Origin: Patescibacteria group bacterium
GTDB taxonomy: Bacteria > Patescibacteriota > Patescibacteriia > Patescibacteriales > GWC2-42-12
NCBI GenBank assembly: GCA_028703305.1
Contig: JAQVNC010000001.1
Location: forward strand, 56,791-120,790
Direction: 5' to 3'
Length of the DNA stretch: 64,000 nt
In this document: in pieces, positions 3,276 through 62,785 of the stretch
How the letters are laid out: every line of letters begins with the position of its first letter
Numbering within the stretch: position 1 is the stretch's first letter
Notes under the pieces: generated by a model
Database searches by the model: none
Told to the model about the DNA's origin: nothing
The model's input: only the letters and a program-made list of their open reading frames with translations
Program-made: the position numbers and the translations under genes

Positions 3276-4193
3276 ATGTTTGATACAATAATCATTGGCG
3301 CCGGTCCGACAGGGATGTCGGCAGCTATATATGCCGCCAGAAGAATGATGAAAACATTGGTAATCTCTAAAAATATAGGCGGCCAGGTTATCTGGGCTTC
3401 TGATATAAAAAATTATCCTGGCATAGAGTTTATTAAAGGCTTTGATTTGATAACTAAAATGAGCCGACAGGTGAAAGATCTTGGGGTTGAGATTAAAGCT
3501 GATGAAGTAAAAAAGATCAGCAAAAATAGTGATAATAGCTTTTTAATTGAAGGCAATAAGGCCAGTTATACGGCTAAAACAATAATTATTGCCATGGGGC
3601 TGGCGCCCAGACAGCTTAATTTGGACAAAGAAAATGAGTTAACCGGCAGGGGAATAAGCTACTGCGCCAATTGTGATGGACCATTGTTCAAGGGTAAAAC
3701 TGTGGCTGTGGCTGGGGGCGGCAACGCGGCCTTGGACGCGGCTGAAGTTATGTCTAAAATTGCCAACAAGGTTTATTTGATTTATCGCAAGCCGCAACTA
3801 AAAGCTTTTGAAAGCTTGGTTTCAGCAGTTAAAGATAAAAGTAATGTGGAGATAATTTTAAGCAGTGAAATTTGCCAGATAATTGGCAGTGAAAAATTGG
3901 AAAAATTGAAAATAATTTCTAATATTAGCCAAGAATCAAGAGAATTAGCTGTGGATGGGCTGTTTGTTGAAATTGGCCATCAACCCAAAACAGAGGTGTT
4001 GGAAGGATTAGTGGAAAGAGATAGTTTAGGGCAGGTTGTTGTGGACTTAAGTGGTAAAACCAGCTGTGATGGAGTTTTCGCGGCCGGCGATGTTACTCAA
4101 AGCGAATTTAAGCAGATTGTTATAGGCTGCGGCCAAGGCGCGGTAGCCGCGTTGTCGGCTTATCAATACTTGCAGACAAGCAAACAAAGTTAA
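3276..4193 (+). CDS. trxB: Thioredoxin-disulfide reductase
   Basis: GAGPTG FAD motif, redox CANCDG, GGGNAA NADPH motif, C-terminal GVFAAGDV; an alternative GTG start lies at 3228. Confidence 0.85.
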   Translation: MFDTIIIGAGPTGMSAAIYAARRMMKTLVISKNIGGQVIWASDIKNYPGIEFIKGFDLITKMSRQVKDLGVEIKADEVKKISKNSDNSFLIEGNKASYTAKTIIIAMGLAPRQLNLDKENELTGRGISYCANCDGPLFKGKTVAVAGGGNAALDAAEVMSKIANKVYLIYRKPQLKAFESLVSAVKDKSNVEIILSSEICQIIGSEKLEKLKIISNISQESRELAVDGLFVEIGHQPKTEVLEGLVERDSLGQVVVDLSGKTSCDGVFAAGDVTQSEFKQIVIGCGQGAVAALSAYQYLQTSKQS

Positions 4194-4211
4194 GATAGAA
4201 ATTGCAGATGA

Positions 4212-4318
4212 AGATTGGGCTAAATTTATAAAATTTTCTACTGCGGAACTCGCCCCAACTTAGCGTCGGGGCTCAAACAGTCCTCGCACGAAAATTTTAC
4301 AAGATTTAGCCCAATCTT
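4212..4318 (+). repeat. About 107-nt long-hairpin palindromic element (copy 1; second copy at 9150..9249), possibly a structured RNA
   Basis: Arms gattgggctaaatttataaaatttt…aaaattttacaagatttagcccaatc with a central GC hairpin cccc…gggg; the copy at 9150 has compensatory changes in both outer and central stems. Confidence 0.6.
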
Positions 4319-4328
4319 ATTGCATTAT

Positions 4329-4937
4329 ATGCTAGATTTAACAGAAGAGAAAAAATTATTTTCTCAAGGCTATAAGATAATAGGCGCTTTAGATGAGGCT
4401 GGGCGCGGGCCTTTAGCCGGGCCGGTAGTGGCCGCCTGCGTTATTTTTAATGCTAATATTAGCATAAATAACGACTTAATCAAAGTTAATGACTCAAAAA
4501 AATTAAGCGAAAAAACCAGAGAGGATTTATTTGAGTTAATTAGAAAAAATTTTCTTGAAGTTGGCGTAGGTATATGCGACCATAAAACCATAGACAGAAT
4601 TAATATATTGCAAGCCACGTTTTTGGCCATGAAGAAGGCGATTAGCTCTGTAAAAATCAAGCCGGATTTTATTATAATTGACGGGTCAGCCAACTTACCT
4701 AATTATTCAACTCCGCAGCAAGCTTATATTAAAGGCGATGAAAGGCTTTTTACTGTCGCCGCGGCTTCAATTATCGCCAAAGTGACCAGAGACAGAATAA
4801 TGCGAGAAATGGATAAATTATATCCGGACTACGGTTTTAGCCGGCATAAAGGCTATGGCACTAAATTTCATCTGGAAAAATTAAGGCAATACGGCCCGTG
4901 CGCGATTCACCGTTTAAGTTTTAATAAGGTTAAATAA
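4329..4937 (+). CDS. rnhB: Ribonuclease HII
   Basis: GxDEAGRGPLAGPVVAA active-site region and RNase HII fold; a TTG alternative start lies at 4320. Confidence 0.85.
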   Translation: MLDLTEEKKLFSQGYKIIGALDEAGRGPLAGPVVAACVIFNANISINNDLIKVNDSKKLSEKTREDLFELIRKNFLEVGVGICDHKTIDRINILQATFLAMKKAISSVKIKPDFIIIDGSANLPNYSTPQQAYIKGDERLFTVAAASIIAKVTRDRIMREMDKLYPDYGFSRHKGYGTKFHLEKLRQYGPCAIHRLSFNKVK

Positions 4938-5589: not shown

Positions 5590-5979
5590 ATGGGAAATTT
5601 TTTAACTTGGAATTTTTGGTTTAGCGCCAGGCCTGGCGCATTTACCGACCTTTCTCTTAAAATGGTTTTGGGCTTTATTTTTTTATTGATTATTTTGTCC
5701 ATTGCCAGCGGGGTTATTAAAAAAAGATGGCTTAAAAGTTTATATTTTTCTTTTTGGAGCGGTTTATACACTTTTTTTATTACCAATGCCATTATCGGCT
5801 TAGTGCTAACGTTTTTTAATTATGAAATGGTGCCGTTTTTATCCGCCCGGTTTTGGTTTCTGTTTTGGGCTATAGGCATGTTGGTTTGGCTGGTCTTTAT
5901 TTGCAGGCTTGCCATAAAAATACCGGAGAAAAAGGCGCAAATGGAAAAAGAAAAGGAGTTCAAAAAATATATTCCATAG
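5590..5979 (+). CDS. Hypothetical integral membrane protein (4 predicted TM segments)
   Basis: Hydrophobic segments; function unknown. Confidence 0.45.
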   Translation: MGNFLTWNFWFSARPGAFTDLSLKMVLGFIFLLIILSIASGVIKKRWLKSLYFSFWSGLYTFFITNAIIGLVLTFFNYEMVPFLSARFWFLFWAIGMLVWLVFICRLAIKIPEKKAQMEKEKEFKKYIP

Positions 5980-6692: not shown

Positions 6693-7886
6693 ATGAAAGC
6701 ATTAAAAAGTTTGTTAATTGTTAGCCTCGTTTTATTTTTTTCCGTAATTTTTTCAAATTATGCCTTGGCCGAAGAAACAGCGCCTATTTTAATTTCACCG
6801 GCGCCGTCCGCTGAAGTTAAAGTCGAGATTAAGCCATCACCGGCGCCGACATTAATCGCGCCTAACCAAACAACCATTACCGCTAAAGTAAAGCCGCTGA
6901 TTATCGGCTTAACTAAAAGCGGCAGCTTAGTTAAAATTTTTATTGACGGGGTTTATAACGGCAAGACGGAAATTTTAAACCATGAAAGCGGCACGGCCAA
7001 TTTTTCTTATACGCCATTTTTAAATTTAAGCCGCGGCTGGCACGAAGTTTATGCTATGGCCGAGAATAAAACCGGCGGAGCCAGCAAAAAATCGGCGGTT
7101 TTACGTTTTAATATTGAACTGCCCATGCCGGCGCCGACTATTTTCAAGCCGGTAGTTAATAAAGACACTTCTTCAAACCGGCCTTTTATCGTCGGTTTGG
7201 CGAAAAATGATTCTAAAATTAAAGTTTATATTGATAAAAAGCTAAACGGAGAATTTGAGGTTAAAAATCATCCGAGCGGCATTGCCAATTTTGCTTACAA
7301 GCCGGTTAAGCTATTGGAGCGAGGCAGCCATTTAGTTCACGCCGTGGCTGTAGATAAGCGCGGCAAACAAAGCAGTTGGTCAAATCCGGTTTATTTTTCA
7401 GTTAAGAATTCCGCTATCGCCCAATCAGCCGTTGAAGAAAAAAGTGATACGGTTGCCAGCATCAAAGAACCGGAAGCGACAGTTAAAGTAAATTCCGAAA
7501 CGCCGATTATTTCTAAGAGCTCCGGCGAGGTTGAAAAAAAATCAGATGAACTAACAGAGATTAAAACGGAGGCGGATAAGGCTATTAATAAATTAATCCG
7601 GCAGGATCAGGCCGGTTTGGATGAAATAAAAAGTTTAATTAGAGGCGATAAAGCGGAAAAAACTAGCGCCGGGCAAGGCATGATCAATGAAGGCAAATCA
7701 AACCAAGGGAAATTAAAATTAAGCCTGGTCTTGTTTATTCTCTTTTTGGTCGGCGTGGTGGCTTGGCTGTTATGGGTTAATCGCGAGCTGGTTAAAGAGC
7801 GCCGAGCGCAAAATGAAGCTGAAGAAAAAACCGATAAAGAAAAAGAGGATTTGACAAGCGGCGGACAAAAAGATAAGTTATTATAA
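6693..7886 (+). CDS. Cell-surface protein with a signal peptide, two tandem Ig-like repeats and a C-terminal TM anchor
   Basis: N-terminal signal peptide, an internal duplication (IFIDGVYNGKTEILNHESGTANFSY… / KVYIDKKLNGEFEVKNHPSGIANFAY…), and a C-terminal hydrophobic helix plus charged tail. Confidence 0.6.
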   Translation: MKALKSLLIVSLVLFFSVIFSNYALAEETAPILISPAPSAEVKVEIKPSPAPTLIAPNQTTITAKVKPLIIGLTKSGSLVKIFIDGVYNGKTEILNHESGTANFSYTPFLNLSRGWHEVYAMAENKTGGASKKSAVLRFNIELPMPAPTIFKPVVNKDTSSNRPFIVGLAKNDSKIKVYIDKKLNGEFEVKNHPSGIANFAYKPVKLLERGSHLVHAVAVDKRGKQSSWSNPVYFSVKNSAIAQSAVEEKSDTVASIKEPEATVKVNSETPIISKSSGEVEKKSDELTEIKTEADKAINKLIRQDQAGLDEIKSLIRGDKAEKTSAGQGMINEGKSNQGKLKLSLVLFILFLVGVVAWLLWVNRELVKERRAQNEAEEKTDKEKEDLTSGGQKDKLL

Positions 7887-7948
7887 TCAGACAGTTGTTG
7901 ATTAAGTTAAATATAATAGATGAATTTGTTCCCGGAACGGGCCCCTTC

Positions 7949-7990
7949 TACACCCCTCCCAGTTTAACTGGAGAGGGGTGTTGCCTTTAA
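7949..7990 (+). terminator. GC-rich hairpin terminator after the surface-protein gene
   Basis: acacccctcccag-tttaa-ctggagaggggtgt. Confidence 0.5.
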
Positions 7991-8068
7991 TTAGCGCCTG
8001 CCCGGCTTGACAAAAATAACAGGTATGGTATAATTTAGATAGTTGTCTAAATATCTAAATATTTTTAT

Positions 8069-8335
8069 ATGACTTTAAATATCACCCTGCAAGCTTTATC
8101 CGATCCGACCAGGCGCAAAATTTTAGAAATTTTAAAGAAAAAAGACCTGGCGGCCGGAGAGCTTGGCAAAAATTTTGATATGACTCTGCCCTCGCTGTCG
8201 CACCACTTAAATGTTTTAAAGCAGGCGGATTTAGTAACTAGCCGGCGCCGTGGCCAAGAAATTATTTATTCTTTAAATTTAAGCGTTTTTGAGGAAATCG
8301 CGGAAAAATTAATTAAATTTTTTAAAAAACTTTAA
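8069..8335 (+). CDS. ArsR/SmtB-family HTH transcriptional regulator (SdpR-like by context)
   Basis: LSDPTRRKILEIL…ELGKNFDMTLPSLSHHLNVLKQADLV winged-HTH; it lies upstream of an SdpI-family gene. Confidence 0.8.
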   Translation: MTLNITLQALSDPTRRKILEILKKKDLAAGELGKNFDMTLPSLSHHLNVLKQADLVTSRRRGQEIIYSLNLSVFEEIAEKLIKFFKKL

Positions 8336-8398
8336 AAACCTTTTTAGAAAAGGTTTTCCCTCAAGAGGATAAATAATATTTTCCAAAAATATAATGTA

Positions 8399-8453
8399 TC
8401 AAGTAAGAATTTAATAGCGGGCAAAGCCCTACGGCCATTAAATTCTTACTTGA
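8399..8453. promoter_or_regulatory. Perfect 17-bp inverted repeat with a 21-nt GC loop, immediately downstream of a TATAAT box and upstream of the sdpI-like gene; candidate operator or RNA hairpin
   Basis: tcaagtaagaatttaat-[agcgggcaaagccctacggcc]-attaaattcttacttga. Confidence 0.4.
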
Positions 8454-8463
8454 TGAAAAATCT

Positions 8464-9138
8464 ATGGCTAATCCAATCAAGCCAACAATTAAAACCGAAT
8501 TTATTCCCTTGCTTTTAATAATTTTAACCGCGGCCGCTTCGGTGTTTTTTTATAATAATCTGCCTGAACGCATCGCTACCCATTGGAATTTCGCCGGCCA
8601 GGTTGACGCTTATGGGTCGGGCAAAGCGCAAGCGGTTGCTTTGCCGTCAATGATTATTGGCATGTATTTGCTTTTTTTGGTATTCCCTTATCTGGATCCC
8701 AAAAAAGAGCGATACGAGCAGTTTAGCAAGGTATATCATATTTTTAAGGCCATAATTTTGGGACTTTTGGTTATTGTATATTTTATTGTCGGACTAAACG
8801 GTTTAGGCTATAATTTGCCCGTTGGCGTAATTATACCGTTTCTGATTGGTTTGTTATTCATCATCATCGGCAACTACATGGCTAAGATAAAAATGAATTG
8901 GTTTATGGGCATTCGCACGCCCTGGACGCTGTCTAGCGAAGAAATTTGGAATAAAACCCATCGTTTTGGTGGTAAAATATTTGTCTTGGCCGGCCTATTG
9001 ATGATGGCGGAGACTATTTTGCCATTGAGCTGGAAATTGCCGGTTTTTGTGTTTATGATAGCGGCTTTATTGTTCGGCACTATAGGTTATTCTTATATTA
9101 TTTTTCTTCTGGAAAAAAAGAAAAAAAAATTTAATTAA
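8464..9138 (+). CDS. SdpI/YhfL-family membrane protein (DUF1648 + SdpI immunity domain)
   Basis: IATHWNFAGQVDAYGSG (DUF1648) and NYMAKIKMNWFMGIRTPWTLSSEEIWNKTHRFGGK (SdpI motif), with 5-6 TM helices. Confidence 0.75.
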   Translation: MANPIKPTIKTEFIPLLLIILTAAASVFFYNNLPERIATHWNFAGQVDAYGSGKAQAVALPSMIIGMYLLFLVFPYLDPKKERYEQFSKVYHIFKAIILGLLVIVYFIVGLNGLGYNLPVGVIIPFLIGLLFIIIGNYMAKIKMNWFMGIRTPWTLSSEEIWNKTHRFGGKIFVLAGLLMMAETILPLSWKLPVFVFMIAALLFGTIGYSYIIFLLEKKKKKFN

Positions 9139-12390: not shown

Positions 12391-12396
12391 TAAAGG

Positions 12397-12645
12397 GCTA
12401 CATCACAGTTGCTCTTTTTTAATACGCGGGATTCATTGGCCTGCCGGGGCTAATGATGAAATTTTTGCTTAAGCCTTTAAAACCAGTCCGCTGGCCGAGG
12501 CCACCTCCTCCTACCGCAACGGACGGGGTTTTCGCAAAAGTTTGATTTCCCGCTTTAGGGGTTGGTCTGCTGTGCGGCGGAGTTGCCAACGACTGCTCCG
12601 CTTGACTAATGCATGCCACGGACCGCCCCTTTTTCTCTTTTTAAA
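12397..12645 (+). ncRNA. Candidate GC-rich structured ncRNA of unknown class, about 250 nt, bounded by a promoter and a terminator
   Basis: About 55% GC in a roughly 35% GC genome with no credible ORF in any frame; long-range stem aggggttggtc/gaccgcccct followed by ttttctcttttt; an internal gcggag…ctccgc hairpin. Confidence 0.4.
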
Positions 12646-12883
12646 AAGCATCAATTAAGATGCTTCTTTTTTTATAAAATTTGCCCAGATTATTTAATCT
12701 AAAATTTCATATTCCCAGCCCGGTTGCCAACCGGTCGCCAGGTCATTCTCATTATCAATCGTCGTGCCATGCACGAAGTAGGTTATTTTTACGGGCATAA
12801 TTAAGAGTAGATATTTTATTTAGTACAAAGTGTAAAAGAATTAGGGTATAAATGCTCCGGAGACAAGGCTTATTATTACATGA

Positions 12884-14137
12884 CTATGCGGCAAAAGCAA
12901 ACAATTGTTGCTGAATGCACACAGGCGTTTCCTCTTTTTCTTCTTCAATTTCACCGTTAAGCATTTTAATTATCATGTCGCCGATGTGATATCCGAGGTT
13001 TGCAGGTACAGCATTTCCTATTTGTTTATATTGTTGCGAAACGGATCCTGAAAATTTCCAACTATCTGGAAATGTTTGAATTCGCGCGTATTCGCGCACA
13101 GACAAAGGGCGCGTTTCATCTGGATGGCAACGTTCAGTTTGTTTTTGAGCCGGACTGCAAGTTAAGGTTAAAGATGGTTCGTCCCATGACAATCGTCTCG
13201 CCATGCCAGTTTTGCCGCCACCCATAAAATAACTTGCTCCCATGTATTCTTTTTGAAGATTTTCCGGAAGATCTCTCCAGTACCCGCCAGGAGGAATTAG
13301 TTCTAATATTTTTTTCTTTTTTTCGGGATATTCTTGGCCTTCAGATTTTGGGCATCTGTTGAATGCTTCACGCAGGGGAACGATATAATCTTTTTCCCTT
13401 GGAAATGAAATTGGAATATTTAAATCTTTTCTAACGCCAATAATTATAAGACGTTCTCTTTTTTGCGGAACATCCAAATATTGTGATCGTAGAATTTTAT
13501 ATTTAACTCGGTATCCAATTTCTTCTAAAACAGACACCATCGTTTTAATCGTTCTGCCATCGTTATGGTTTAGTAATCCTTTGACATTTTCTCCAATTGC
13601 AATTTTAGGCCTAACTTCCTTAACACATCTCGCGAACTCAAAAAATAATGTACCCCGTATATCTTCAAACCCCATTTTTCGACCAGCTTGCGAAAAAGTC
13701 TGGCAAGGGAAACCTCCTTGAACAATATCAGCCTGCCCTTTAAAAAATTTAAGCTCTCTTATATCTTTTTCCACAACATTCCAATTTGGCTTGTTGATTC
13801 GAAGTGTTTCACAGGCGTGTTTGTCATACTCGTTTAATAACACATGTTCAATTCCCGCGTTTTCCATCCCTAAAGCAGTGCCCCCTGCGCCAGCAAATAA
13901 CTCGATTGCTGTGTAGTTGGACATTCGATTATTCTTTAAAATTTTAAATTTGCTTTTTTTATCCCCATGAGTTTTATTTTGTATTCTCTTTATTTCTTCT
14001 AAACTAAATATACGATCGTTTTTTCCATCTCTAAAAGATTTAATTAATCCTTTTTTATCCCACCTCCTGATAGTATCAATTGAAATACCTAATTGACGAG
14101 CCGCCTCTCCAGCGGTTATGAATTGATTTTTTTTCAT
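12884..14137 (-). CDS. DNA (cytosine-5) methyltransferase with an N-terminal MerR/excisionase-type HTH domain
   Basis: N-terminal FITAGEAARQLGISIDTIRRWDKKGLI (HTH); ELFAGAGG (motif I); GFPCQTFSQAGRKMG (PC motif IV); ENV; and a C-terminal QIGNAVP. Confidence 0.85.
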   Translation of the reverse strand: MKKNQFITAGEAARQLGISIDTIRRWDKKGLIKSFRDGKNDRIFSLEEIKRIQNKTHGDKKSKFKILKNNRMSNYTAIELFAGAGGTALGMENAGIEHVLLNEYDKHACETLRINKPNWNVVEKDIRELKFFKGQADIVQGGFPCQTFSQAGRKMGFEDIRGTLFFEFARCVKEVRPKIAIGENVKGLLNHNDGRTIKTMVSVLEEIGYRVKYKILRSQYLDVPQKRERLIIIGVRKDLNIPISFPREKDYIVPLREAFNRCPKSEGQEYPEKKKKILELIPPGGYWRDLPENLQKEYMGASYFMGGGKTGMARRLSWDEPSLTLTCSPAQKQTERCHPDETRPLSVREYARIQTFPDSWKFSGSVSQQYKQIGNAVPANLGYHIGDMIIKMLNGEIEEEKEETPVCIQQQLFAFAA

Positions 14138-14198
14138 AAAAAATGATAGATTAATAATCTATCATAATTATATCAAATAACCTTTGCCTAGGCAATGG

Positions 14199-14906
14199 TT
14201 ATTTAGTGAGAAAAGCTAATTTAAATAATTCAAAATATTTCTTAGCTTCTTCTTTGCTTAATTTAAACTTGTATTTGTCTACTAAAATATGAGATAGTGC
14301 TTCAAATAGTTCCTGCAGGGCATATTTTCGTCCGGTTGCAAGAGCATAAAAGCTTATGCCATCAATTATTCTGATATTTTTTGCGCTCGGTCTTCTTTTT
14401 TGAGTCTTATTGTCTGATGGGGTAAAAGGTTTGTCGTATATGTTTTTTGCTTGAGGTATTATTTCTACATAATATCCAGTAAAGCGATGAAATTTTTCTG
14501 ATTTAAGTTTTGATTTTATAGCATCATATATTTCAACCTTATGATTTCCTTTTGTTGTATTGAATTTATTTTTTACTTCCGCGATAATTTTCATTTTATC
14601 ATTTGCAACATCCAAACCTCCACCAACGCCGAGATTTTTCCAGCCAGGGATTGCACCCAATACTTCTTGATGAAAATCACCAATGGCATTTTGCATTGTT
14701 TTTTGTGATTGTCTGGCCTTTTCTTGTTTTATCCATTCTTTATATGTTATCGCATGGGTGACCCCATGAAACAAGGCTGAAAAAGGATCAATAACATTTT
14801 TATGGAGATTACTACTGGCCTCACGTTCGGTCGTTTTGATTATTCTGACCACTTTTCCAACGGCAGAAATTAGGTTTTTGTCGGATATAAATTTTAGATA
14901 TGGCAT
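14199..14906 (-). CDS. Putative type II restriction endonuclease partnering the C5-MTase (tentatively Eco47II-like)
   Basis: Adjacent and co-directional with the C5-MTase, 235 aa, no housekeeping similarity; the family assignment is from memory only. Confidence 0.45.
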   Translation of the reverse strand: MPYLKFISDKNLISAVGKVVRIIKTTEREASSNLHKNVIDPFSALFHGVTHAITYKEWIKQEKARQSQKTMQNAIGDFHQEVLGAIPGWKNLGVGGGLDVANDKMKIIAEVKNKFNTTKGNHKVEIYDAIKSKLKSEKFHRFTGYYVEIIPQAKNIYDKPFTPSDNKTQKRRPSAKNIRIIDGISFYALATGRKYALQELFEALSHILVDKYKFKLSKEEAKKYFELFKLAFLTK

Positions 14907-14927
14907 AAATATTTTTAATAATTAATT

Positions 14928-15110
14928 AAATCGTTTTCGCGGCGGAGCGGTTTTGCTCAACGTCGGCGCATATAAGAAGAAATGCGAAACGAGTTGAGGT
15001 GGTACAATTTGTGCGGAGCACTACCACCGAAAACGAGTGTAGCATTTTTTGCGTGAACGAGCCATGCGAGTGAGCCTTATATGCGCTGTTATATGCTGTG
15101 CCAGCCTTAT
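14928..15110. repeat. GC-rich repeat A: the 3' half of the 66-bp core plus a variable hairpin module (gcgcatataag…cttatatgcgc)
   Basis: cgcggcggagcggttttgctcaacg matches the right half of the cores at 15731 and 18911; long-range cgttttcg/cgaaaacg pairing. Confidence 0.6.
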
Positions 15111-15111
15111 A

Positions 15112-15570
15112 CTAAAGCTGTTTTTTCATTAGTGTCATTGAACCTACATCACCAACAATTTCCTTTATTTTTTTATATCCTAACTTCTTATAAAAATTTA
15201 CTGCAAAGGGGCTTGCTTTAAGGGAGACGGAGCGAAAACCCCATTTTTTTGCGTCACTTTCTAAACGATTCATGAGCTCTCTACCAATGCCCTTACCATG
15301 ATAATTCGGATTAACAAACACAGCACGACCCCAATTATCGTTCAGTGTTAAATCTAAAGTAGCAGTACCAACAACTTTTCCATTTAATTCAGCAACATAG
15401 ATATTGAATCGTTTAGAATCCTTAATAAACTGACCAGGTGTAAAATGCTTGTAGAGGATCACAGTTTGCTTTTTAGTTATATCTTTACTGTTAATTAAAA
15501 CGATACATTTTCTGCTTAAATAAGAAAGTTTTCGCTCGTCTCCCTTTTTAAATTTTCGAATTTTAATCAT
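15112..15570 (-). CDS. GNAT-family N-acetyltransferase
   Basis: Acetyl-CoA motif VGTATL…RAVFVNPNYHGKGIGRELM; start taken at MIKIRKF (15570), because the ORF-track N-extension runs into the GC repeat. Confidence 0.75.
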   Translation of the reverse strand: MIKIRKFKKGDERKLSYLSRKCIVLINSKDITKKQTVILYKHFTPGQFIKDSKRFNIYVAELNGKVVGTATLDLTLNDNWGRAVFVNPNYHGKGIGRELMNRLESDAKKWGFRSVSLKASPFAVNFYKKLGYKKIKEIVGDVGSMTLMKKQL

Positions 15571-15574
15571 AAGT

Positions 15575-15900
15575 TTAAGGCTGACATGGCATATAACGCG
15601 CGCGGGATATGCGATGCGCCTGGAGGCCAGTACTCTGGCCGCAAGGCGTTTCGCATATCCCGAGTTGGGCGATGCCGCTCCGCCTTGCCCGTAGGGCGGG
15701 CGAGCGGCGAGTCCAACGAGGGCCTGCCCGCGCGCGTTGAGCAAAACCGCGAGCACCGAGCGTTAGCGAGGGCGGAGCGGTTTTGCTCAACGTATCGGCA
15801 TATCTGATGTTTGCCGTAGCGTAGCGGAGGCAAATATGGGTGGAGGCTTTTGTATAAAAGCCGTAACCAGATATGCCGTGTTATGTGATGTGCATGTTTT
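15575..15900. repeat. GC-rich repeat B: hairpin cgggatatgcga…tcgcatatcccg, then the 66-bp core (15731..15796), then a variable hairpin module (ggcatatctg…cagatatgcc)
   Basis: The core cgcgcGTTGAGCaaaaccgc…gcggttttGCTCAACgtatc is identical to 18911..18976. Confidence 0.7.
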
Positions 15901-16016
15901 ACTTTAATCCCGATAGCAATCGGGATTGCTCTAAAAAAGAATTTTAATTTTGTTTTTTTTGTTTTGAAAAAATGAAAGAGGGGTTAGGGGTGAATTCCAT
16001 TTTTCAAAACTCCTTA

Positions 16017-16754
16017 TTATTTACTACGTTGTTTTTTATAAGCCTCAATAATTTTATTTGCCAATTCATTAGATTTAGATTCGTATTTTACAAATTCATC
16101 AATATTATCTTGTTTAACATGTAGCTGCCCTTCTCCGGTGTTGCCTCTGTGCTGTCCTTTTGAATAGTATTTATTTTGCTCAACTTCTTTTGAAGCAAGT
16201 ACCCAATATTTAATCGTGTCTCGCCAAACTCCAACCCAAACAAAAACATCGCAACATTTAGGCTTTACTTGTTGAAAATTCATATCAAATGGTAGTCCTG
16301 ATTCCCATGCTAACGCTTTAACATAAAGTGCTTCTTGACTGTTAAAATCGACAGCTCTTGAGGCTTTAACTTCTATTTTAATCATTTCTCCATTCGTTAG
16401 CGGATATAAAAAGTCGTATTCTCCAGAATAATTTTCTTCAAGTTTCTTTGTTGGCTTAATAAGTTCAGGAGCAAGCTCTTTTAGGTGTCCCTGTGCCCAT
16501 TGTTCTCCAAACCCACGTGGTGCAGAAATTTCAAATATGTAGAGATACATATTTCTAGCAATATACTCATCTCTAATTTCTAGATAATCGTCTAAAGTGA
16601 TTTTATCTAGACCTAACAAAGTTGAAATTATGTATTCATATTCATTAAATGGATACACCGAAATTAAATTTTCGAGCCTTGTTTTAAGTCCGTCGCCCTC
16701 TTGTTTTGAAAGAGAGTCTATCATCTTTTCGAGTTTTTTCTTTAGAATTTCCAT
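16017..16754 (-). CDS. Hypothetical protein with a PD-(D/E)xK-like motif; putative restriction endonuclease of the second R-M module
   Basis: …EYDFLYPLTNGEMIKIEVKASRA… (D…ExK arrangement); 4 bp downstream of and co-directional with the N6A-MTase. Confidence 0.4.
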   Translation of the reverse strand: MEILKKKLEKMIDSLSKQEGDGLKTRLENLISVYPFNEYEYIISTLLGLDKITLDDYLEIRDEYIARNMYLYIFEISAPRGFGEQWAQGHLKELAPELIKPTKKLEENYSGEYDFLYPLTNGEMIKIEVKASRAVDFNSQEALYVKALAWESGLPFDMNFQQVKPKCCDVFVWVGVWRDTIKYWVLASKEVEQNKYYSKGQHRGNTGEGQLHVKQDNIDEFVKYESKSNELANKIIEAYKKQRSK

Positions 16755-16758
16755 AGGA

Positions 16759-18723
16759 TTATTTAATGTTAAAATTTTTAATATGTTTTTTTTCTTTTTC
16801 TGTAAGACTAAATTGATCCATTATATAATTATCCAATTCTTCATATTTGTCTTTTTTGGCTATTATATCATCTACTAATTTCATAATTATTTCAAAAATT
16901 TCTTTATTCCATAAAGGTAAAGGCATTTGTTCAATATGATTTCTCAAAACTTTTATACTCGAAAACTTTTTTTGAAAAATAAACTGATAAGGAGATGAGT
17001 TTAATAAAGCAACGATAACCTTAATTGGATAGTTTGGGATTTTGGGAATTACAATATTTGCACTATTTAAAGTTAATTTTTGCTTGTCATCATATGCAAA
17101 TATCAAATACTTTGAAATGAAGCGATAAATTAATTTTTCTTTAGCTCTATATTTTTCGATAGGAGCAACTTGTTGAAATTTTTCGGGAGTAAATTGTATG
17201 TAATTTGACGGATTACTTAAAATAAATTTATCAACTTCTTTTCCTTTATATATTTCTTCAAGTCCTTCTTTTTTTTCGCTCGTTATATATGCTTTGTTAT
17301 TGCCAGTAACAATACCAAGTGCCCAATCTGCTTGATTTGATAATGTTGTGTGCTGAATATCAAAAATTTTATCAATTATGCTTGTATCAAAGCCATTTGC
17401 ATGTATGTCAAAAACAAAGTCAATATTATTTTTCCACTTAGATTGTTCAATGAAATATTTTTCATTTTCTTTAAAAATTTCAATCTGTGTGTTTTCTATT
17501 CTGTTTTTTTCTAAATCAAGTCTGATAACTGGAGTAAATACATTTTTAAACACACGATTCAAACAAGAGACTTTTTTTATATGAGTATTTTTCAAAATAA
17601 TTTCTCGTATATCTTTGTGTGTTTTTACATTCAAAATTGATTCAGGCAAGATAAATGAAATAAATCCTCCGTCTTTTAGCAAATCAATACTCTTTTTTAA
17701 GAAATAAGAGAAAGATTCTAAAGATGTTATTTCAGGATAGGTTGTTTTTAATTTTTCTGTATCTAATTTTGAAAAATGAACACCCCAAGGTGGATTTGTC
17801 GCAATTACATCAAAATCTCTAATATTCTCGTCATTCAAACTAAATAAATCATAACTTCCAATTTCAAAAAGTGTATTTTTACAAACAATATTTGGTGCGA
17901 AGTTTTGATCTTTATATTTCATCAAGATATTTAATCTTGCGATTCTCACAGCTATTTCGTCTATATCAACTCCGTAAATATTTTTTGGATTTTCAACTGT
18001 ATCAGCAAATGCTAATAAAAATTGACCTGTTCCACAACAAGGGTCTAAAACTTTAGAATCTGTTTTTACATAATCCTTAATTATTTCATTAACGATTGTT
18101 TCTGGCGTATAATAAGAGCCTCCTTGTGATTTTTCCCCCTCAAGTAATAGTGATTGATAAAAAAATCCCAAAGTATCACGTTGTCTGGGGATAGAACAAT
18201 TTAACAAAAAGGAATATTCATCTTTAACATTATCAACACCAATATCTGATAACCATGCTTTGATTTCTTCTGAGATTTGTTTGTTGGTGGAAGATAAATT
18301 TTGTGTGATTAAATTTTGAATTGTAATATTTGAAAATATTTTTTCTTTTTGAAGTAAGTTAAGACTTAATAATAATAAAGAAAGTGAAGTATTAATATTA
18401 TTTTTTGAAACAAAGTCTAAAATTTTATTTATGTCATCAATACTAATCCCATCTTTTAAATATTCATCTGGAATAAAAGTCCTCTCTGCTTTAGATTTAT
18501 TTGCCCTTCCATTTAATTTGTCAAAATCACCATTTACTATGTTAGATTTGATATTTTCAATATCGGATAAACTAAAAGAATATCGTCTTTCATTGTTATA
18601 TGTTTTTAGATGACCGCATTTAACCCAATTTCTTACGGTCGCAGTTGAAATACCTAAAAAAGACGACGCTTTTTCAATGTCTATGATATTTTTTGCCTTA
18701 TTTGTAATAGTTAATTCCTGCAT
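16759..18723 (-). CDS. Gamma-class N6-adenine DNA methyltransferase with an N-terminal HTH and a C-terminal target-recognition domain
   Basis: N-terminal ASSFLGISTATVRNWVKCGHL (HTH); VLDPCCGTGQFLL (motif I) precedes DVIATNPPWG (motif IV); start taken at MQELTIT (18723), so the ORF-track N-extension is untranslated leader. Confidence 0.8.
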   Translation of the reverse strand: MQELTITNKAKNIIDIEKASSFLGISTATVRNWVKCGHLKTYNNERRYSFSLSDIENIKSNIVNGDFDKLNGRANKSKAERTFIPDEYLKDGISIDDINKILDFVSKNNINTSLSLLLLSLNLLQKEKIFSNITIQNLITQNLSSTNKQISEEIKAWLSDIGVDNVKDEYSFLLNCSIPRQRDTLGFFYQSLLLEGEKSQGGSYYTPETIVNEIIKDYVKTDSKVLDPCCGTGQFLLAFADTVENPKNIYGVDIDEIAVRIARLNILMKYKDQNFAPNIVCKNTLFEIGSYDLFSLNDENIRDFDVIATNPPWGVHFSKLDTEKLKTTYPEITSLESFSYFLKKSIDLLKDGGFISFILPESILNVKTHKDIREIILKNTHIKKVSCLNRVFKNVFTPVIRLDLEKNRIENTQIEIFKENEKYFIEQSKWKNNIDFVFDIHANGFDTSIIDKIFDIQHTTLSNQADWALGIVTGNNKAYITSEKKEGLEEIYKGKEVDKFILSNPSNYIQFTPEKFQQVAPIEKYRAKEKLIYRFISKYLIFAYDDKQKLTLNSANIVIPKIPNYPIKVIVALLNSSPYQFIFQKKFSSIKVLRNHIEQMPLPLWNKEIFEIIMKLVDDIIAKKDKYEELDNYIMDQFSLTEKEKKHIKNFNIK

Positions 18724-18771
18724 GGTAATTTGTCTTTTATAGTGTAATTGTATCTTGTTTTCAAAAATATT

Positions 18772-18806
18772 AAAATCGTTTTCGGAGCGATAGCGGAGAA
18801 AACACC
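18772..18806. repeat. Degenerate partial copy (D) of the GC-rich repeat in the 5' leader of the N6A-MTase
   Basis: aaaatcgttttcggagcgatagcggagaaaacacc versus repeat A aaatcgttttcgcggcggagcgg. Confidence 0.45.
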
Positions 18807-18879
18807 TTATACCCCCCTCTTTAAAAATTAAAAAAATCAAATTCCTTGTTTCTTAAAGCCCACCAAAAACATTTAAAAA

Positions 18880-19140
18880 AACAAATTTTTCAAAAATATG
18901 TCGCCTAACGCGCGCGTTGAGCAAAACCGCGAGCACCGAGCGTTAGCGAGGGCGGAGCGGTTTTGCTCAACGTATCCGAATATACGAAGTTCTAATTTTT
19001 TTCTGTGTTATAATTGTGCGGACACGCCAACGCAGAAAAAAATTAGAATTTAGGCGGAGATAAAATTCAACTCATTAATGTAATGTAAAAAGGAATTTTA
19101 TCGGAGCCGTATATTCGGTGTTATCGGATGTAAAATTTAT
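18880..19140. repeat. GC-rich repeat C: GCCTAAC-gcgcgc then the 66-bp core (18911..18976) then a variable module (cgaatatacg…cgtatattcg, with a nested ttctaatttttttctg…cagaaaaaaattagaa hairpin)
   Basis: 66-bp perfect identity with 15731..15796; the flanking stems covary around a central ATAT. Confidence 0.7.
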
Positions 19141-19152
19141 TAGCGGGCTTAT

Positions 19153-19482
19153 TTAAACGAAAATTTGAATAATATAATAATAAATGACACTTAAAACAAG
19201 TATTAAACTTGTTGCTTTGATAAATTGATTTTTTATTAATATCGAAAATTTGATTAAAAAGAACGTTAATGCCAAAAATATTATTAGCGGATAAATGCTC
19301 ATTATAACAAAAGCAGTGCCTCCAAAAACGGCTTGAATGCTTTCGTTGAAATCAGAAGGGTAGCCGTTTATTTTTGGAATTATAAATAAGTAACATGCTG
19401 ATAAAAATAATGAGCTTACAAAAAGAAGCGGAATTAATAAAAAATCAAATTTTTGGGGTCTTAAGATTTGTAGTGGTTTCAT
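19153..19482 (-). CDS. Hypothetical small membrane protein (3 TM segments)
   Basis: Hydrophobic profile only. Confidence 0.45.
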   Translation of the reverse strand: MKPLQILRPQKFDFLLIPLLFVSSLFLSACYLFIIPKINGYPSDFNESIQAVFGGTAFVIMSIYPLIIFLALTFFLIKFSILIKNQFIKATSLILVLSVIYYYIIQIFV

Positions 19483-19597
19483 TGTTATATTGTTAAAAAT
19501 TAGAAAGCTAATAAATTTTATTTCCGATAACTAGTTATATATGAACTTAATTATATTTTATTTAATTTTACAATAAAAATCAAATAAGGTTTTGGGT

Positions 19598-19634
19598 TTT
19601 TTTCTGGATTCCCGCCTGTGCGGGAATGACAAGC
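19598..19634 (+). repeat. Short hairpin repeat ttttctggattcccgcctgtgcgggaatgacaa (S2)
   Basis: Same consensus as the copies at 20845, 50640, 11187 and 62333. Confidence 0.65.
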
Positions 19635-19638
19635 GGGA

Positions 19639-20814
19639 TTATTTTTCCAATATAACTATCTCCCGCCAAACCTTTTGCCCGTCGCGGCCGTAGATAATAC
19701 TGTCGCGGTTGGTTATTTTTAGAAAAATATTTTTTTTCAGGTTGGCCGGTATAGAGCCAATAATTTTATAACCATCTATGTTAGGGTAGATAAAAGTTGA
19801 AAGTTTTCCCTGAAACACGGGCCAAATCATCACGATTTTACCACCGGGTTTTAAAATTTTTTTAAATTCTCTTAAACTTTCGGAATATAATTTTTCCAGT
19901 TCAGTTTTTATTTTATTAATCGGCGTATTGCCTCTTTGCGGGCCTAAATACGGTTCGGTAATAATAAAATCTATTGAATTCGGCGCAATGTGTTTTGAAA
20001 TTTGCGCGGCGTCAGAATGAAAAAGCTTAAAATTTAAAGCTTCAAGTTTAAAATTAGATTGAACCCAGGCGAGATTATTTTTTGTGTCTCCGAGAGCCCT
20101 GTCGGATATATCAGAACCGGTTATTTTTTTATAGCCCATTAAAGCCGCTTCGGTAATAATCGTGCCAGAACCGCAAAATGGATCTAAAATAGCCGCGCCT
20201 AAATCCGCGCCAGCTAAATTTATCATAATCTGCGCCAGCTTGGGCGGCAACATGCCGGAATAATCGTCGCGCGCCGGCCGGCCGTAATCTCTAAATGACA
20301 ATTCTTTAAACGGCTGGACGGCCAGGGTTTTTCCTAAAAGTAATTTTTTATTAAATTCAATAATAACGATTTCCACGCCTTTGTCCGTAACTAATTTGTT
20401 CTGCTCCACCACTACGCTTGATAAAGTCGGTTCCCGGCTTATAACCCAGCGGCTATTTATGCCTGACTCTTTAAGTAATTTTTTAAATTCCATGCCTAAA
20501 ACTTTTAAGTTAATTTTACTTTTACCATAATAAGAAATGCCAAAATTAAATTTTGAATCACTTTTTTCCGGTTTGGCGAAGCTGGTAGCTGATTTTAAAA
20601 TGTCTTTAACAGCAATTGAAGCTGGCTCGCCATGAATTAGGCCGAATTTAACGGTGCCGCCGATTTTTTTAATAATATTAGCCTTTATTTCTTCGTTAGT
20701 TTCTAAAATCGCGATATTTTTTTGAATTAAAGAAAATTGGCCATGATTAAAAACGGCCGTTAGTTCGGCTAAGGATAAAGTCGGGTTGGTGCCCAGAATG
20801 AAGAAATAACGCAT
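19639..20814 (-). CDS. THUMP-domain RNA methyltransferase (RlmL/Trm-G10-like, UPF0020)
   Basis: N-terminal THUMP-like region plus DPFCGSGTIITEAALMGYKKITGSDIS…, a SAM-binding methylase core. Confidence 0.7.
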   Translation of the reverse strand: MRYFFILGTNPTLSLAELTAVFNHGQFSLIQKNIAILETNEEIKANIIKKIGGTVKFGLIHGEPASIAVKDILKSATSFAKPEKSDSKFNFGISYYGKSKINLKVLGMEFKKLLKESGINSRWVISREPTLSSVVVEQNKLVTDKGVEIVIIEFNKKLLLGKTLAVQPFKELSFRDYGRPARDDYSGMLPPKLAQIMINLAGADLGAAILDPFCGSGTIITEAALMGYKKITGSDISDRALGDTKNNLAWVQSNFKLEALNFKLFHSDAAQISKHIAPNSIDFIITEPYLGPQRGNTPINKIKTELEKLYSESLREFKKILKPGGKIVMIWPVFQGKLSTFIYPNIDGYKIIGSIPANLKKNIFLKITNRDSIIYGRDGQKVWREIVILEK

Positions 20815-20844: not shown

Positions 20845-20877
20845 TTTTCTGGATTCCCGCTTTCGCGGGAATGACGA
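20845..20877 (+). repeat. Short hairpin repeat ttttctggattcccgctttcgcgggaatgacgaa (S3)
   Basis: Consensus family member; lies in the THUMP-MTase upstream region. Confidence 0.6.
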
Positions 20878-21114
20878 AGGTAATTTAATTAAACCTTAGC
20901 ATAAGAATATGGCTCTTGCAATTTATTTTTGGCTGTGGTAATGTATGAATACAATTTAATTTAACCTTTCCCATATTTAACTGCTAGTGCTGTTAAATAG
21001 CCTGGCGCAAAGCCAGACTAAAGGTATTCTCAAGTAATCCCATGATTGGCAATTCAAGCCGCGAGAATATCTTGGGATTTTTGTTAATAAGGCAAAAATT
21101 AACCAATTAAAATT

Positions 21115-22121: not shown

Positions 22122-22234
22122 GTCATTGCGAGCGAACGGAGTGAGCGAAGCAATCTCACGTATGAGAAGTTTAAATTATAATTTTTACTTCGTGGGATTG
22201 CTTCGTCGCCTATTACGGCTCCTCGCAATAACAA
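22122..22234. repeat. Nested palindromic repeat L1 (gtcattgcgag…gaagcaatctcac…gtgggattgcttc…ctcgcaataacaa), intercistronic between ssb and rpsR
   Basis: Outer and inner inverted blocks shared with five other copies. Confidence 0.75.
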
Positions 22235-37743: not shown

Positions 37744-37845
37744 GTCATTGCGAGGAGCCACGTACTCGTGGCGACGCGGCAATCTCTGGTTGAGCTCCGA
37801 GTATGTGAGATTGCTTCGCTTCCTTTGGTCGCTCGCAATGACAAT
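37744..37845. repeat. Nested palindromic repeat L3
   Basis: gtcattgcgaggagccacgtactcgtggcgacgcggcaatctctg…gtgagattgcttcgcttcctttggtcgctcgcaatgacaa; near-identical to L6. Confidence 0.75.
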
Positions 37846-50629: not shown

Positions 50630-50700
50630 GTTATTGCGAAAAATTTCTGGATTCCCGCCTGCGCGGGAATGACAAATTGGAGATTGGTCGCAATGACATT
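50630..50700 (+). repeat. Short hairpin repeat S4 (tttctggattcccgcctgcgcgggaatgacaa) nested inside a minimal gttattgcgaa…gtcgcaatgaca frame; it supplies ATGs upstream of gdh
   Basis: Shares the consensus of the other S copies; the flanks resemble the termini of the L family. Confidence 0.65.
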
Positions 50701-51955: not shown

Positions 51956-52064
51956 GTCATTGCGAGCTTCTGAAAGAAGCGAAGCAATCTCACGAATGGC
52001 AAGTTTGGGTAAAAAATTGTTGTCCGTGAGATTGTTTCGTCGCTGAAGCTCCTCGCAATGACAG
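51956..52064. repeat. Nested palindromic repeat L4
   Basis: gtcattgcgagcttctgaaagaagcgaagcaatctcac…gtgagattgtttcgtcgctgaagctcctcgcaatgaca. Confidence 0.75.
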
Positions 52065-57480: not shown

Positions 57481-57620
57481 ATTTTTATGGTAGCAAGTTT
57501 ATTTATTTTTGTCATGCCAGCCGTAGCCTGCCCCCTTTCTTTTGACAAAAAGAGTGGAAAAAACTACTATTAAGATAAAGATTTTGTATTATCGTAGACA
57601 GTATTTATTAAATTATGAGT

Positions 57621-57662
57621 GTGTGAGATTGCTTCGTCGCTGGAGCTCCTCGCAATGACAAT
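57621..57662. repeat. Right half of nested palindromic repeat L5 (a possible degenerate left arm lies near 57513)
   Basis: gtgtgagattgcttcgtcgctggagctcctcgcaatgacaa. Confidence 0.6.
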
Positions 57663-58920: not shown

Positions 58921-59013
58921 GTCATTGCGAGGAGCGCTAGCGACGAAGCAATCTCTGGTTAATATCCGAGTACGTGAGATTGCTTCGCTCCTTTCAGTCG
59001 CTCGCAATGACAC
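58921..59013. repeat. Nested palindromic repeat L6, abutting the glyA stop
   Basis: gtcattgcgaggagcgctagcgacgaagcaatctctg…gtgagattgcttcgctcctttcagtcgctcgcaatgaca. Confidence 0.75.
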
Positions 59014-62074: not shown

Positions 62075-62785
62075 ATGGATAAACAAACGCAGAAAAATTT
62101 ATTAGAGCTGGTAAAAAAAAATTACGAGGAAATCGCGGAGAATTTTGATATAACCAGAAAAAAACAGTTATGGCCGGAGCTTTTGAAATTGGCCGAAATG
62201 GTGAAAGATGGAGATAGAATTTTAGATGTTGGCTGTGGCAACGGTAGATTGATAGAAGCGTTTGGCGAAAAGAAAATAGAATATCTGGGAGTGGATAGTA
62301 GTGAGAAACTGGTTGAAACGGCGAAGAAGAATCTGGGCTCCCGCCTGCGCGGGCATGACAAATTGGCGGTCGGTGATATTTTAAAATTGGATAAATTGCC
62401 GGAGAAAGATTTTAATTATGTTTTTTGCATTGCCGTCTTGCACCATCTGCCGGGCGAAGATTTAAGGCTGGAAGCTTTAAAGCAGATGAAAAATAAAATA
62501 AATAGTAACGGCAAAATTATAATCACGGTTTGGAATTTATGGAGCCGGTGGAAATTTATAAAATTGATTTTTAAGTACGGTTGGTTTAAGTCAGCCGGCA
62601 AAAACCAGATGGACTTCGGCGATATTTTGTTTGATTGGAAAAATAATAAGGGCGAGCGGATTAGCCGGCGGTATTACCATGCCTTTACCAAAAATGAATT
62701 AAAAAAACTGTCTGTCCGCGCGGGGTTTAAAGCGGAGAAAATATATAAAGATAAATATAATTATTACGCGATTTTAACCAAATAG
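62075..62785 (+). CDS. Class I SAM-dependent methyltransferase carrying an in-frame repeat-derived insertion
   Basis: LDVGCGNGRL motif I; residues …LGSRLRGHDKLAVGD… are encoded by an S-type repeat. Confidence 0.65.
   Translation: MDKQTQKNLLELVKKNYEEIAENFDITRKKQLWPELLKLAEMVKDGDRILDVGCGNGRLIEAFGEKKIEYLGVDSSEKLVETAKKNLGSRLRGHDKLAVGDILKLDKLPEKDFNYVFCIAVLHHLPGEDLRLEALKQMKNKINSNGKIIITVWNLWSRWKFIKLIFKYGWFKSAGKNQMDFGDILFDWKNNKGERISRRYYHAFTKNELKKLSVRAGFKAEKIYKDKYNYYAILTK

Follow-up and report, generated by a model that had tools for sequence, protein, structure and literature searches.

The 64,000-nucleotide stretch of DNA analysed here (the window) belongs to contig JAQVNC010000001.1 of a Patescibacteria group bacterium, assembly GCA_028703305.1, and carries two identical copies of a GC-rich palindrome, which we designate P. 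P is probably a hairpin-forming junction module, devoid of any open reading frame (ORF), of an integron-like gene-cassette array inserted in a chromosome of the Falkowbacteria type, within the Candidate Phyla Radiation (CPR, Patescibacteria). [quoted passage not shown] The structural integron criteria that were tested are matched, whereas the canonical site geometry and model fail, as does the presence of a nearby IntI; because of these failures, the array is set apart from CALIN membership. Positions without a locus name are those of the window, and sites are written on its + strand, which is the "bottom" strand of integrons.

Palindrome P and the adjoining hairpin sites

The 56-nt core of P, running from GTTGAGC to GCTCAAC, is found exactly twice in the window, at 15736-15791 and 18916-18971, with 0 mismatches between the copies and 0 occurrences expected from 100 shuffles. 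The original prediction, made from the sequence alone, had reported an identical repeat of 66 bp with perfect inverted-repeat arms matching the GTTRRRY and RYYYAAC boxes of integron attC sites. Both claims are borne out and slightly extended: perfect identity reaches 2 nt further leftward, for a total of 68 nt (15729-15796 and 18909-18976, both on the + strand), and the boxes are genuine, set in a perfect 16-nt inverted repeat, CGTTGAGCAAAACCGC and GCGGTTTTGCTCAACG, that gives a hairpin with a 16-bp stem. The arms of copy 1 lie at 15735-15750 and 15777-15792, with the boxes GTTGAGC at 15736-15742 and GCTCAAC at 15785-15791; those of copy 2 lie at 18915-18930 and 18957-18972. As single-stranded DNA, P folds with -24.1 kcal/mol (z = -4.5), a stability equalled in 0 of 200 shuffles.

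Two partial relatives of P had also been noticed. The recurrence of its 3' half holds up: the right half alone, GGCGGAGCGGTTTTGCTCAAC, is present on the + strand at 14941-14961, joined through an irregular junction to the leader of an Eco47II-type restriction-modification (RM) operon, and similarity to P runs on to 14979. The supposed degenerate piece at 18772-18806 fares less well; it contains a shorter hairpin, GTTTTC..GGAGCGATAGCGGAG..GAAAAC, related to the interior of P and to 14930-14950, but this is a weak judgement made by eye, as is the delimitation of a short P-like hairpin, GTTTTC-GGAGCGATAGCGGA-GAAAAC, at 18778-18802 (+ strand) in the leader of a second RM unit.

The window was scanned for the pattern NNNNAAC, 4 or 5 nt, a perfect stem of 11-13 bp, 1 nt, GTTNNNN. 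Four sites of this design were found, all with the same polarity on the + strand and all within one island of minus-strand genes described below; the remaining matches are AT-only chance stems. Site 1 (14955-15094), 3' of a GNAT acetyltransferase unit, reads GCTCAAC, gtcg, the stem GCGCATATAAG...CTTATATGCGC, t, GTTATAT. Site 2 (15591-15670) reads ATATAAC, gcgcg, CGGGATATGCGA...TCGCATATCCCG, a, GTTGGGC, and represents a constant type designated stem1. Site 3 (15785-15886), 3' of the second RM unit, reads GCTCAAC, gtat, CGGCATATCTG...CAGATATGCCG, t, GTTATGT, and site 4 (18965-19126), 3' of a unit encoding a 109-aa protein, reads GCTCAAC, gtat, CCGAATATACG...CGTATATTCGG, t, GTTATCG. Between sites 2 and 3 the order is H, linker, P. 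H (15664-15717, + strand), GTTGGGC...GTCCAAC, is a second box-armed hairpin without an ORF; site 2 shares its GTT-box with the left arm of this hairpin. The linker (15718-15735, + strand) is an 18-nt GC sequence, gaGGGCctGCCCgcgcgc, for which an alternative fold gives pairing with 15598-15606; it resembles a vestigial site of the stem1 type in inverted form, as we in part infer.

The place of P among these sites accounts for its odd orientation. Its arms are a complementary pair of GTT-box and AAC-box lengthened to 16 bp, and its right arm doubles as the crossover-side AAC-box of the adjoining site, site 3 for copy 1 and site 4 for copy 2; the "inverted" box order of P follows from this double use. 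The idea that the palindrome is an attC-type recombination site therefore stands in part. The repeat belongs to an integron-type recombination-site complex, but the palindrome itself is not the attC; the actual attC-like units are the variable hairpins adjoining P, with their consistent polarity, spacing and covariation. P forms a unit of 62 nt (18909-18970, with the equivalent unit within 15717-15790) bounded by two positions at which crossover between AA and C (AA/C) is predicted. Copy 2 stands without H and without site 2, and its left border is an intact box GCCTAAC (18903-18909). The sequence GCCTAAC-gcgcgc, said in the original prediction to precede this copy, is present at 18903-18915 and marks a predicted crossover: identity between the two P copies begins exactly at the final C of the box, that is, at AA/C.

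Three related loci were found. L001, a metagenome-assembled genome (MAG) of Candidatus Falkowbacteria, was the only match to the repeat in the genome collection. L118, a JGI metagenome contig, was the only real relative among eight matches from the metagenome scan, the other 7 of the 8 being chance matches inside high-GC coding DNA. L126, an ENA contig, was reached through a protein-database search with a spurious ORF spanning the conserved junction. Among viral contigs, a 15-mer gave single chance matches only and the P loop gave none.

The same site design occurs nine more times in L001, L118 and L126, making 13 sites from four assemblies. Neither the AAC nor the GTT triplet varies in any of the 13, and a single polarity is kept throughout. 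Every stem cell pairs across the 13 sites (100%), all 143 being Watson-Crick with no G-T pair, which fits a constraint at the DNA level rather than the RNA level. Compensatory changes on both sides are seen in 8 of 11 stem pairs, a result matched by 0 of 500 shuffles, and pairing collapses to 21-50% in slid controls.

Inside the variable-type sites, two small hairpins surround the motif T(T/A)TGGG(Y)G(G)AG. This motif occurs in 10 of the 11 variable-type sites (window 15835, 19049 and 15048; L001 234 and 1498; L118rc 864 and 1536; L126 3240, 4298 and 4917) and is absent from the constant stem1-type sites. Two attC-like sites of L126, at 1824-2397 and 3781-4347, contain a HicA/HicB-like gene pair inside the first inner hairpin, with arms TTGACTTATTTTTT and AAAAAATAAGTCAA, so that the loop of a recombination-site hairpin there holds a 0.5-kb gene pair.

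The block formed by site 2, H, the linker and P is more than 95% conserved in the window, in L001 (twice) and in L118, and a diverged form is found twice in L126. Five distinct gene neighbourhoods, spread over four independent assemblies, contain this stem1-H-P block, its orientation never changing, and an assembly artefact is disfavoured by the recurrence. The boxes of L126 have changed in concert, to GTTGTGC/GCACAAC in both H and P of one copy and to GTTATGC/GCATAAC in the other; the sequence of H differs while its pairing is kept. In P of L126 a deeper C:G pair of the stem has become T:A, and the arms GTTGAGC/GCTCAAC co-vary as box pairs. The 29-nt loop of P is the same in the window and in the two copies of L126; the L001 and L118 copies each have two 1-nt G insertions in it. 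Each of the 8 occurrences of P adjoins a variable site. P is nevertheless missing from four sites of that type (L126 1824, 3133 and 5530; L118rc 1498), for which reason we regard P as a separable unit.

These further copies bear on two earlier claims. Those in L001, L118 and L126 all lie at gene-unit boundaries, so the objection that copies elsewhere might be unconnected with cassette boundaries does not hold. The proposal that 66 nt of identity marks an actively conserved site, in contrast, is less apt than an explanation in which a junction module was duplicated or homogenised inside a single array, because the copies in other genomes differ in their arms by compensatory changes while the loop stays fixed.

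Gene units and their end boxes

Read along the + strand, a gene unit lies between the GTTxxxx box of one site, on its left, and the xxxxAAC box of the following site, on its right. The two end boxes are exact reverse complements over the four variable positions in 7 of 10 gene units, and one more unit matches at 3 of 4; random re-pairing reaches the observed matches in about 3 of 100,000 trials (permutation p = 2-3e-5). The pair GTTATCG/CGATAAC bounds unit X of the window, unit K of L118 and the 174-aa unit of L126; GTTATAT/ATATAAC bounds the GNAT unit of the window, GTTGTGC/GCACAAC and GTTATCT/AGATAAC bound units c1 and c2 of L001, and GTTATGT/ACATAAC bounds unit J of L118. The H and P units, too, have complementary end boxes. 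Units that exist as circles, their two ends joined in one paired box with the AA/C crossover inside it, would be expected to show such complementarity. Circular units with a crossover inside a paired box at AA/C are the defining logic of integron cassettes, whose chimeric sites have been described (PMC4889954).

In the pathway we favour, a tyrosine recombinase resembling integron integrases, whose gene lies elsewhere or has been lost, would cut at AA/C on a folded single strand, excise units as circles and re-insert them, and P and the larger stem1-H-P block would have been moved or copied by the same route. Movement or copying of P within the array would explain both the 68/68 identity and the start of that identity at the crossover point.

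All genes of the island are on the - strand. Nearest its proximal end is unit X (19153-19482), encoding a 109-aa predicted membrane protein without a family match. The RM gene unit (16017-18723) comprises an N6-adenine methyltransferase with Eco57I and TaqI_C domains (16759-18723) and a 245-aa protein of unknown family (16017-16754), and is preceded by an AT-rich leader (18724-18902). The GNAT acetyltransferase unit (15112-15570) has its start codon 20 nt past the junction box, so its own promoter is apparently missing. The distal RM operon (12884-14906) encodes the Eco47II-type endonuclease (14199-14906) and a MerR-fused C5 cytosine methyltransferase (12884-14137). Across all loci, the cargo consists of RM systems, a GNAT protein, two HicAB pairs, a 2'-5' RNA-ligase-like protein, a CxxCxxCC protein, a PEMT-like methyltransferase and small unknown proteins. 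This co-oriented cargo of RM, GNAT, HicAB and small unknown genes is typical of chromosomal integrons.

The same unit ends, a 5' end TTATCGGAAATA.. and a 3' site with stem CCGAATATACG and largely identical interior, surround three different genes in three assemblies: the 109-aa membrane protein (window 19120-19126 and 19525-19531), a 115-aa ORF (L118rc 610-625) and the CxxCxxCC protein (L126 5520-5536 and 4867-4993). Three different genes with the same ends indicate that the site is not tied to one gene. L118 and L126 are likewise where the stem and ends of site 4 recur beside other genes. An AT-rich hairpin, TTTTGAAAAA(A)TGAAA-gaggGGTTRGGGgtg-..TTTCATTTTTCAAAA, is nearly alike at 15960-16010 of the window and at L001 388-432, lies directly 3' of the stop codon of two unrelated cassette genes in these two genomes, and has a heptamer resembling a GTT-box in its loop. 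Between the endonuclease and C5 methyltransferase genes of the distal RM operon, at 14140-14198, are the palindromes GATAGATTAATAATCTATC and AAATAACCTTTGCCT/AGGCAATGGTTATTT, which look like an operator for RM control.

Searches for an integrase and attC, and rival explanations

Several results weigh against an integron-like array. As the original prediction had stated, no intI is nearby: none of the 48 ORFs scanned in the window encodes a tyrosine recombinase (PF00589), and the L001, L118 and L126 contigs likewise have no integrase. A proxy attC covariance model (R1), built from 7 of ten experimentally validated attCs (PMC9668308) and distinct from IntegronFinder's own model, gave only noise in the window and in the three related loci (at most 12 bits, E > 1), so the attC-model check that had been proposed returned no match above noise at these sites. 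On two class 1 integron controls (L129 and L130) the same model scored 69.5 bits for aadA1, 46.9 for a second site and 20.5 for arr-3 but missed some others of the control attCs, and its sensitivity is therefore only moderate. The geometry is also non-canonical, with spacers of 4-5 nt and 1 nt and perfect stems of 11-13 bp; the extrahelical bases for which a fold was to be inspected are absent from the stems, whereas in validated attCs the spacers, of about 5 nt, are roughly symmetric and the L box contains bulged bases (PMC9668308). Sites reach 244 nt, or 574 nt where HicAB is enclosed. The end boxes of the RM unit are mismatched, agreeing at 1-2 of 4 positions, and upstream of the distal RM operon stands only half of P, while a regular 3' site is missing, none being found after the C5 methyltransferase gene in 12690-12883. 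A palindrome at the proximal end of the array was considered as an attI and is unsupported in that role, being present in the relative L127 without array or integrase. Finally, sampling is thin, at four loci, and recombination is predicted.

A by-eye lead, the ORF at L001 2053-2190 (..IRNFSPKTIQAYVYYNKG), was considered as an integrase N-terminus and rejected: it has no homologue, no Pfam or NCBIfam match, no BLASTP similarity to IntI1 and no PDB match. In control L130 a group II intron reverse transcriptase gene (7667-9022) directly follows the arr-2 cassette, for which the proxy model reported no attC; the intron is presumably an attC-targeting group IIC intron. Rfam models returned only tRNAs at the gathering threshold in the window, and the sole match at E <= 1 within 12.3-19.7 kb was a chance miRNA.

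Integrase-less attC arrays are a recognised class (PMC4889954), and they dominate MAG data; archaeal genomes yielded 6 IntI for 539 attCs (PMC9668308). We took as a CALIN at least two attC sites on one strand within about 4 kb and without intI nearby. The four co-oriented sites lie 0.1-3.1 kb apart with no intI, in keeping with that geometry, but they fail the proxy attC model. The likeness to CALIN and to sedentary chromosomal integrons with homogeneous attC sites, such as the VCR (Vibrio cholerae repeat) arrays of Vibrio, is otherwise broad. In both, small co-oriented genes, mostly without promoters of their own, are set between imperfect palindromes with RYYYAAC at the start and GTTRRRY at the end. 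The sites have a polarity, keep AAC and GTT unchanged, vary in their terminal part and resemble one another closely within a lineage; a unit opens with bases complementary to its distal box; and toxin-antitoxin, GNAT, RM and other defence genes are among the cargo. ORF-less cassettes are known in those systems, and intI is often missing in MAGs (PMC4889954, PMC9668308). There are also differences: the unpaired central spacer of integron attCs is roughly symmetric and about 5 nt long, whereas these sites have spacers of 4-5 nt and 1 nt, and they differ further in their perfect stems of 11-13 bp without extrahelical bases, in conserved inner modules with two inner hairpins around TTTGGGYGAG, in lengths of up to 244 nt and in the enclosure of HicAB genes in L126. 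Extra box-armed hairpins, P and H, also lie between sites here, and the host in this case is a CPR bacterium.

The main rival keeps the integron framework and reads P as the inner part, L-box plus terminal loop, of an extended but otherwise canonical attC, with the variable hairpin as a spacer insertion. The + strand would then read GCCTAAC, gcgcgc, GTTGAGC..P..GCTCAAC, gtat, the variable hairpin, t, GTTATCG. We consider this nested arrangement unlikely but retain it as the main rival because the box order and spacing at 18903-19126 fit strikingly: RYYYAAC, 6 nt, GTTRRRY ... RYYYAAC, 5 nt, GTTRRRY is the layout of validated attCs. That identity between the copies starts at the AA/C position of GCCTAAC, and that P lies directly beside a variable hairpin wherever it occurs (8/8), also suit it. 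Against these stand the outer box, which is degenerate in the four full compounds (CCTGCCC or CTTGCCC instead of RYYYAAC), and four variable hairpins that act as junctions without P, for example at L118rc 1498-1584, where the end boxes of the neighbouring unit match perfectly. The nested arrangement, too, goes unscored by the proxy attC model.

A second rival places the palindromes outside recombination-site biology altogether, as selfish elements like miniature inverted-repeat transposable elements (MITEs), or like repetitive extragenic palindromes (REPs) and the bacterial interspersed mosaic elements (BIMEs) they compose. These would be spread by a transposase of the HUH kind or of the kind of the REP-associated tyrosine transposases (RAYTs), or by another transposase, and would have gathered between horizontally acquired genes, with box complementarity reduced to short terminal inverted repeats. 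GC-rich nested palindromes in an AT-rich genome, in mosaic clusters like BIMEs, do resemble such elements, and REP/BIME mosaics with their RAYT likewise consist of GC-rich hairpins in tandem and inverted intergenic mosaics that are highly conserved within a genome. The missing integrase, the failure of the canonical attC model, the HicAB pairs inside L126 hairpins (suggesting insertion into palindromes) and the presence of other dispersed repeat families in the window lean the same way. REPs, however, are genome-wide and carry a GTAG-type tetranucleotide, whereas the elements here are restricted, within 64 kb, to one island and to gene-unit boundaries, where complementary AAC/GTT boxes frame each gene unit. 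They keep one polarity relative to the genes throughout, their invariant AAC...GTT frame with fixed spacing of 4-5 nt and 1 nt is an integron-type feature, and neither the window nor the related loci have a transposase or RAYT-like ORF. We give selfish palindromes little credence.

Least probable of the three is a role for P in RNA, as a terminator, 3'-end stabiliser or insulator hairpin between co-transcribed genes with its identity kept by selection on that role: P is a very stable hairpin between co-oriented genes and its loop sequence is kept between genomes, but no U-tract follows it, a terminator scan was blank at every P, H and hairpin site, in the neighbouring sites every one of the 143 stem cells is Watson-Crick without G-U, the arms consist of box sequences whose changes go together with those of the recombination boxes, and a separate AT-rich hairpin lies directly after a stop codon at 15960-16010.

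Recombinases other than IntI offer further comparisons. A hairpin folded from single-stranded DNA can imitate a duplex core site and be used by a tyrosine recombinase of the host, as at the attP of CTX-phi, and gene modules can be bounded by short recombinase sites without a dedicated integrase nearby, as with dif-like sites and pdif modules. Unlike these Xer-dependent elements, the array has no evident dif-like 11-6-11 site, and all its sites share one polarity where pdif modules alternate in orientation. A resemblance of the stems (..GCGCATAT..) to dif/Xer sites, seen by eye, was dropped, the spacing being unfit.

Chromosomal setting and wider meaning

The whole island spans ~12690-19530 (6.8 kb) and replaces three housekeeping-type genes of the close relative L127. 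Its gene bodies have a GC fraction of 0.25-0.36, against 0.60 for the compound junction and 0.38-0.41 elsewhere, and the sites, P and H are confined to 14.9-19.1 kb of the window. One flanking protein is 100% identical to a protein of a Patescibacteria group bacterium, and the closest relatives of that protein are from Falkowbacteria. Relatives in which the flanking Trm11-like protein is 74-88% identical keep the synteny recA-efp-S18-ssb-S6-Trm11...ychF and carry other genes, without palindromes, between Trm11 and ychF; in the syntenic relatives L122, L124, L127 and L128 there is no array and no integrase at this locus. Homology to L127, the closest of them, ends at ~12690 on one side and on the other runs through a border palindrome at 19525-19540 (+ strand), and from these breakpoints the island is a 6.8-kb replacement or insertion. 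The border palindrome, CGATAAC-ta-GTTATAT, forms the proximal end of the array. Its CGATAAC is the exact complement of GTTATCG at 19120-19126, and its core, TAACTAGTTA, is found both in L127, which has no array, and at the array end in L001.

Next to ychF, at 12395-12640 on the - strand, a GC-rich non-coding stretch of ~240 nt is conserved in L127 (2530-2632) and L124 (~5690-5910); it may be a CPR RNA gene or leader, although it has no Rfam match at E <= 1 and folds no better than shuffles (z = -0.14). Two dispersed repeat families lie in the window outside the island, one with the sequence TCTGGATTCCCGCCTGCGCGGGAATGACAA and the other made up of hairpin pairs GTCATTGCGAGC...GCGAAGCAATCTCAC. 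Both are also in L001 and unrelated to the island elements; their positions are 19603-19645, 20848-20890, 50646-50688 and 62332-62374, and also 22122-22209, 37771-37843, 51956-52063, 57608-57660 and 58940-59012.

A broader proposal, which we put forward tentatively and with less confidence than the assignment of P to an integron-like array, is that CPR bacteria possess their own class of hairpin-bounded cassette arrays. These would act like integrons, through single-stranded hairpin sites, AA/C crossover and circles, but with a distinct architecture missed by standard attC models; the recombinase would be a highly divergent IntI or a non-IntI enzyme, for example a host recombinase of the Xer type, and box-armed, ORF-less palindromes such as P and H would either be small mobile units or arise as by-products when new cassette sites are made. 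Very small genomes have been reported to be without complete integrons (PMC4889954). In the literature searched we found no report of integrons in CPR/Patescibacteria, an absence that is no proof of novelty.

Among systems that stockpile and shuffle accessory genes, integrons are the best known. Surveys with the canonical attC model may be systematically blind to arrays such as this one, and interest would rise with a dedicated or unusual recombinase and with an architecture widespread in CPR. The asymmetric spacer, the lack of bulged bases and the conserved inner modules offer concrete material on strand choice, an open question in integron biology, and ORF-less units made from a pair of crossover boxes bear on another, the origin of cassette recombination sites. 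If the array is confirmed, ultra-small episymbiotic bacteria also use cassette-type gene capture, here of RM, toxin-antitoxin and acetyltransferase genes.

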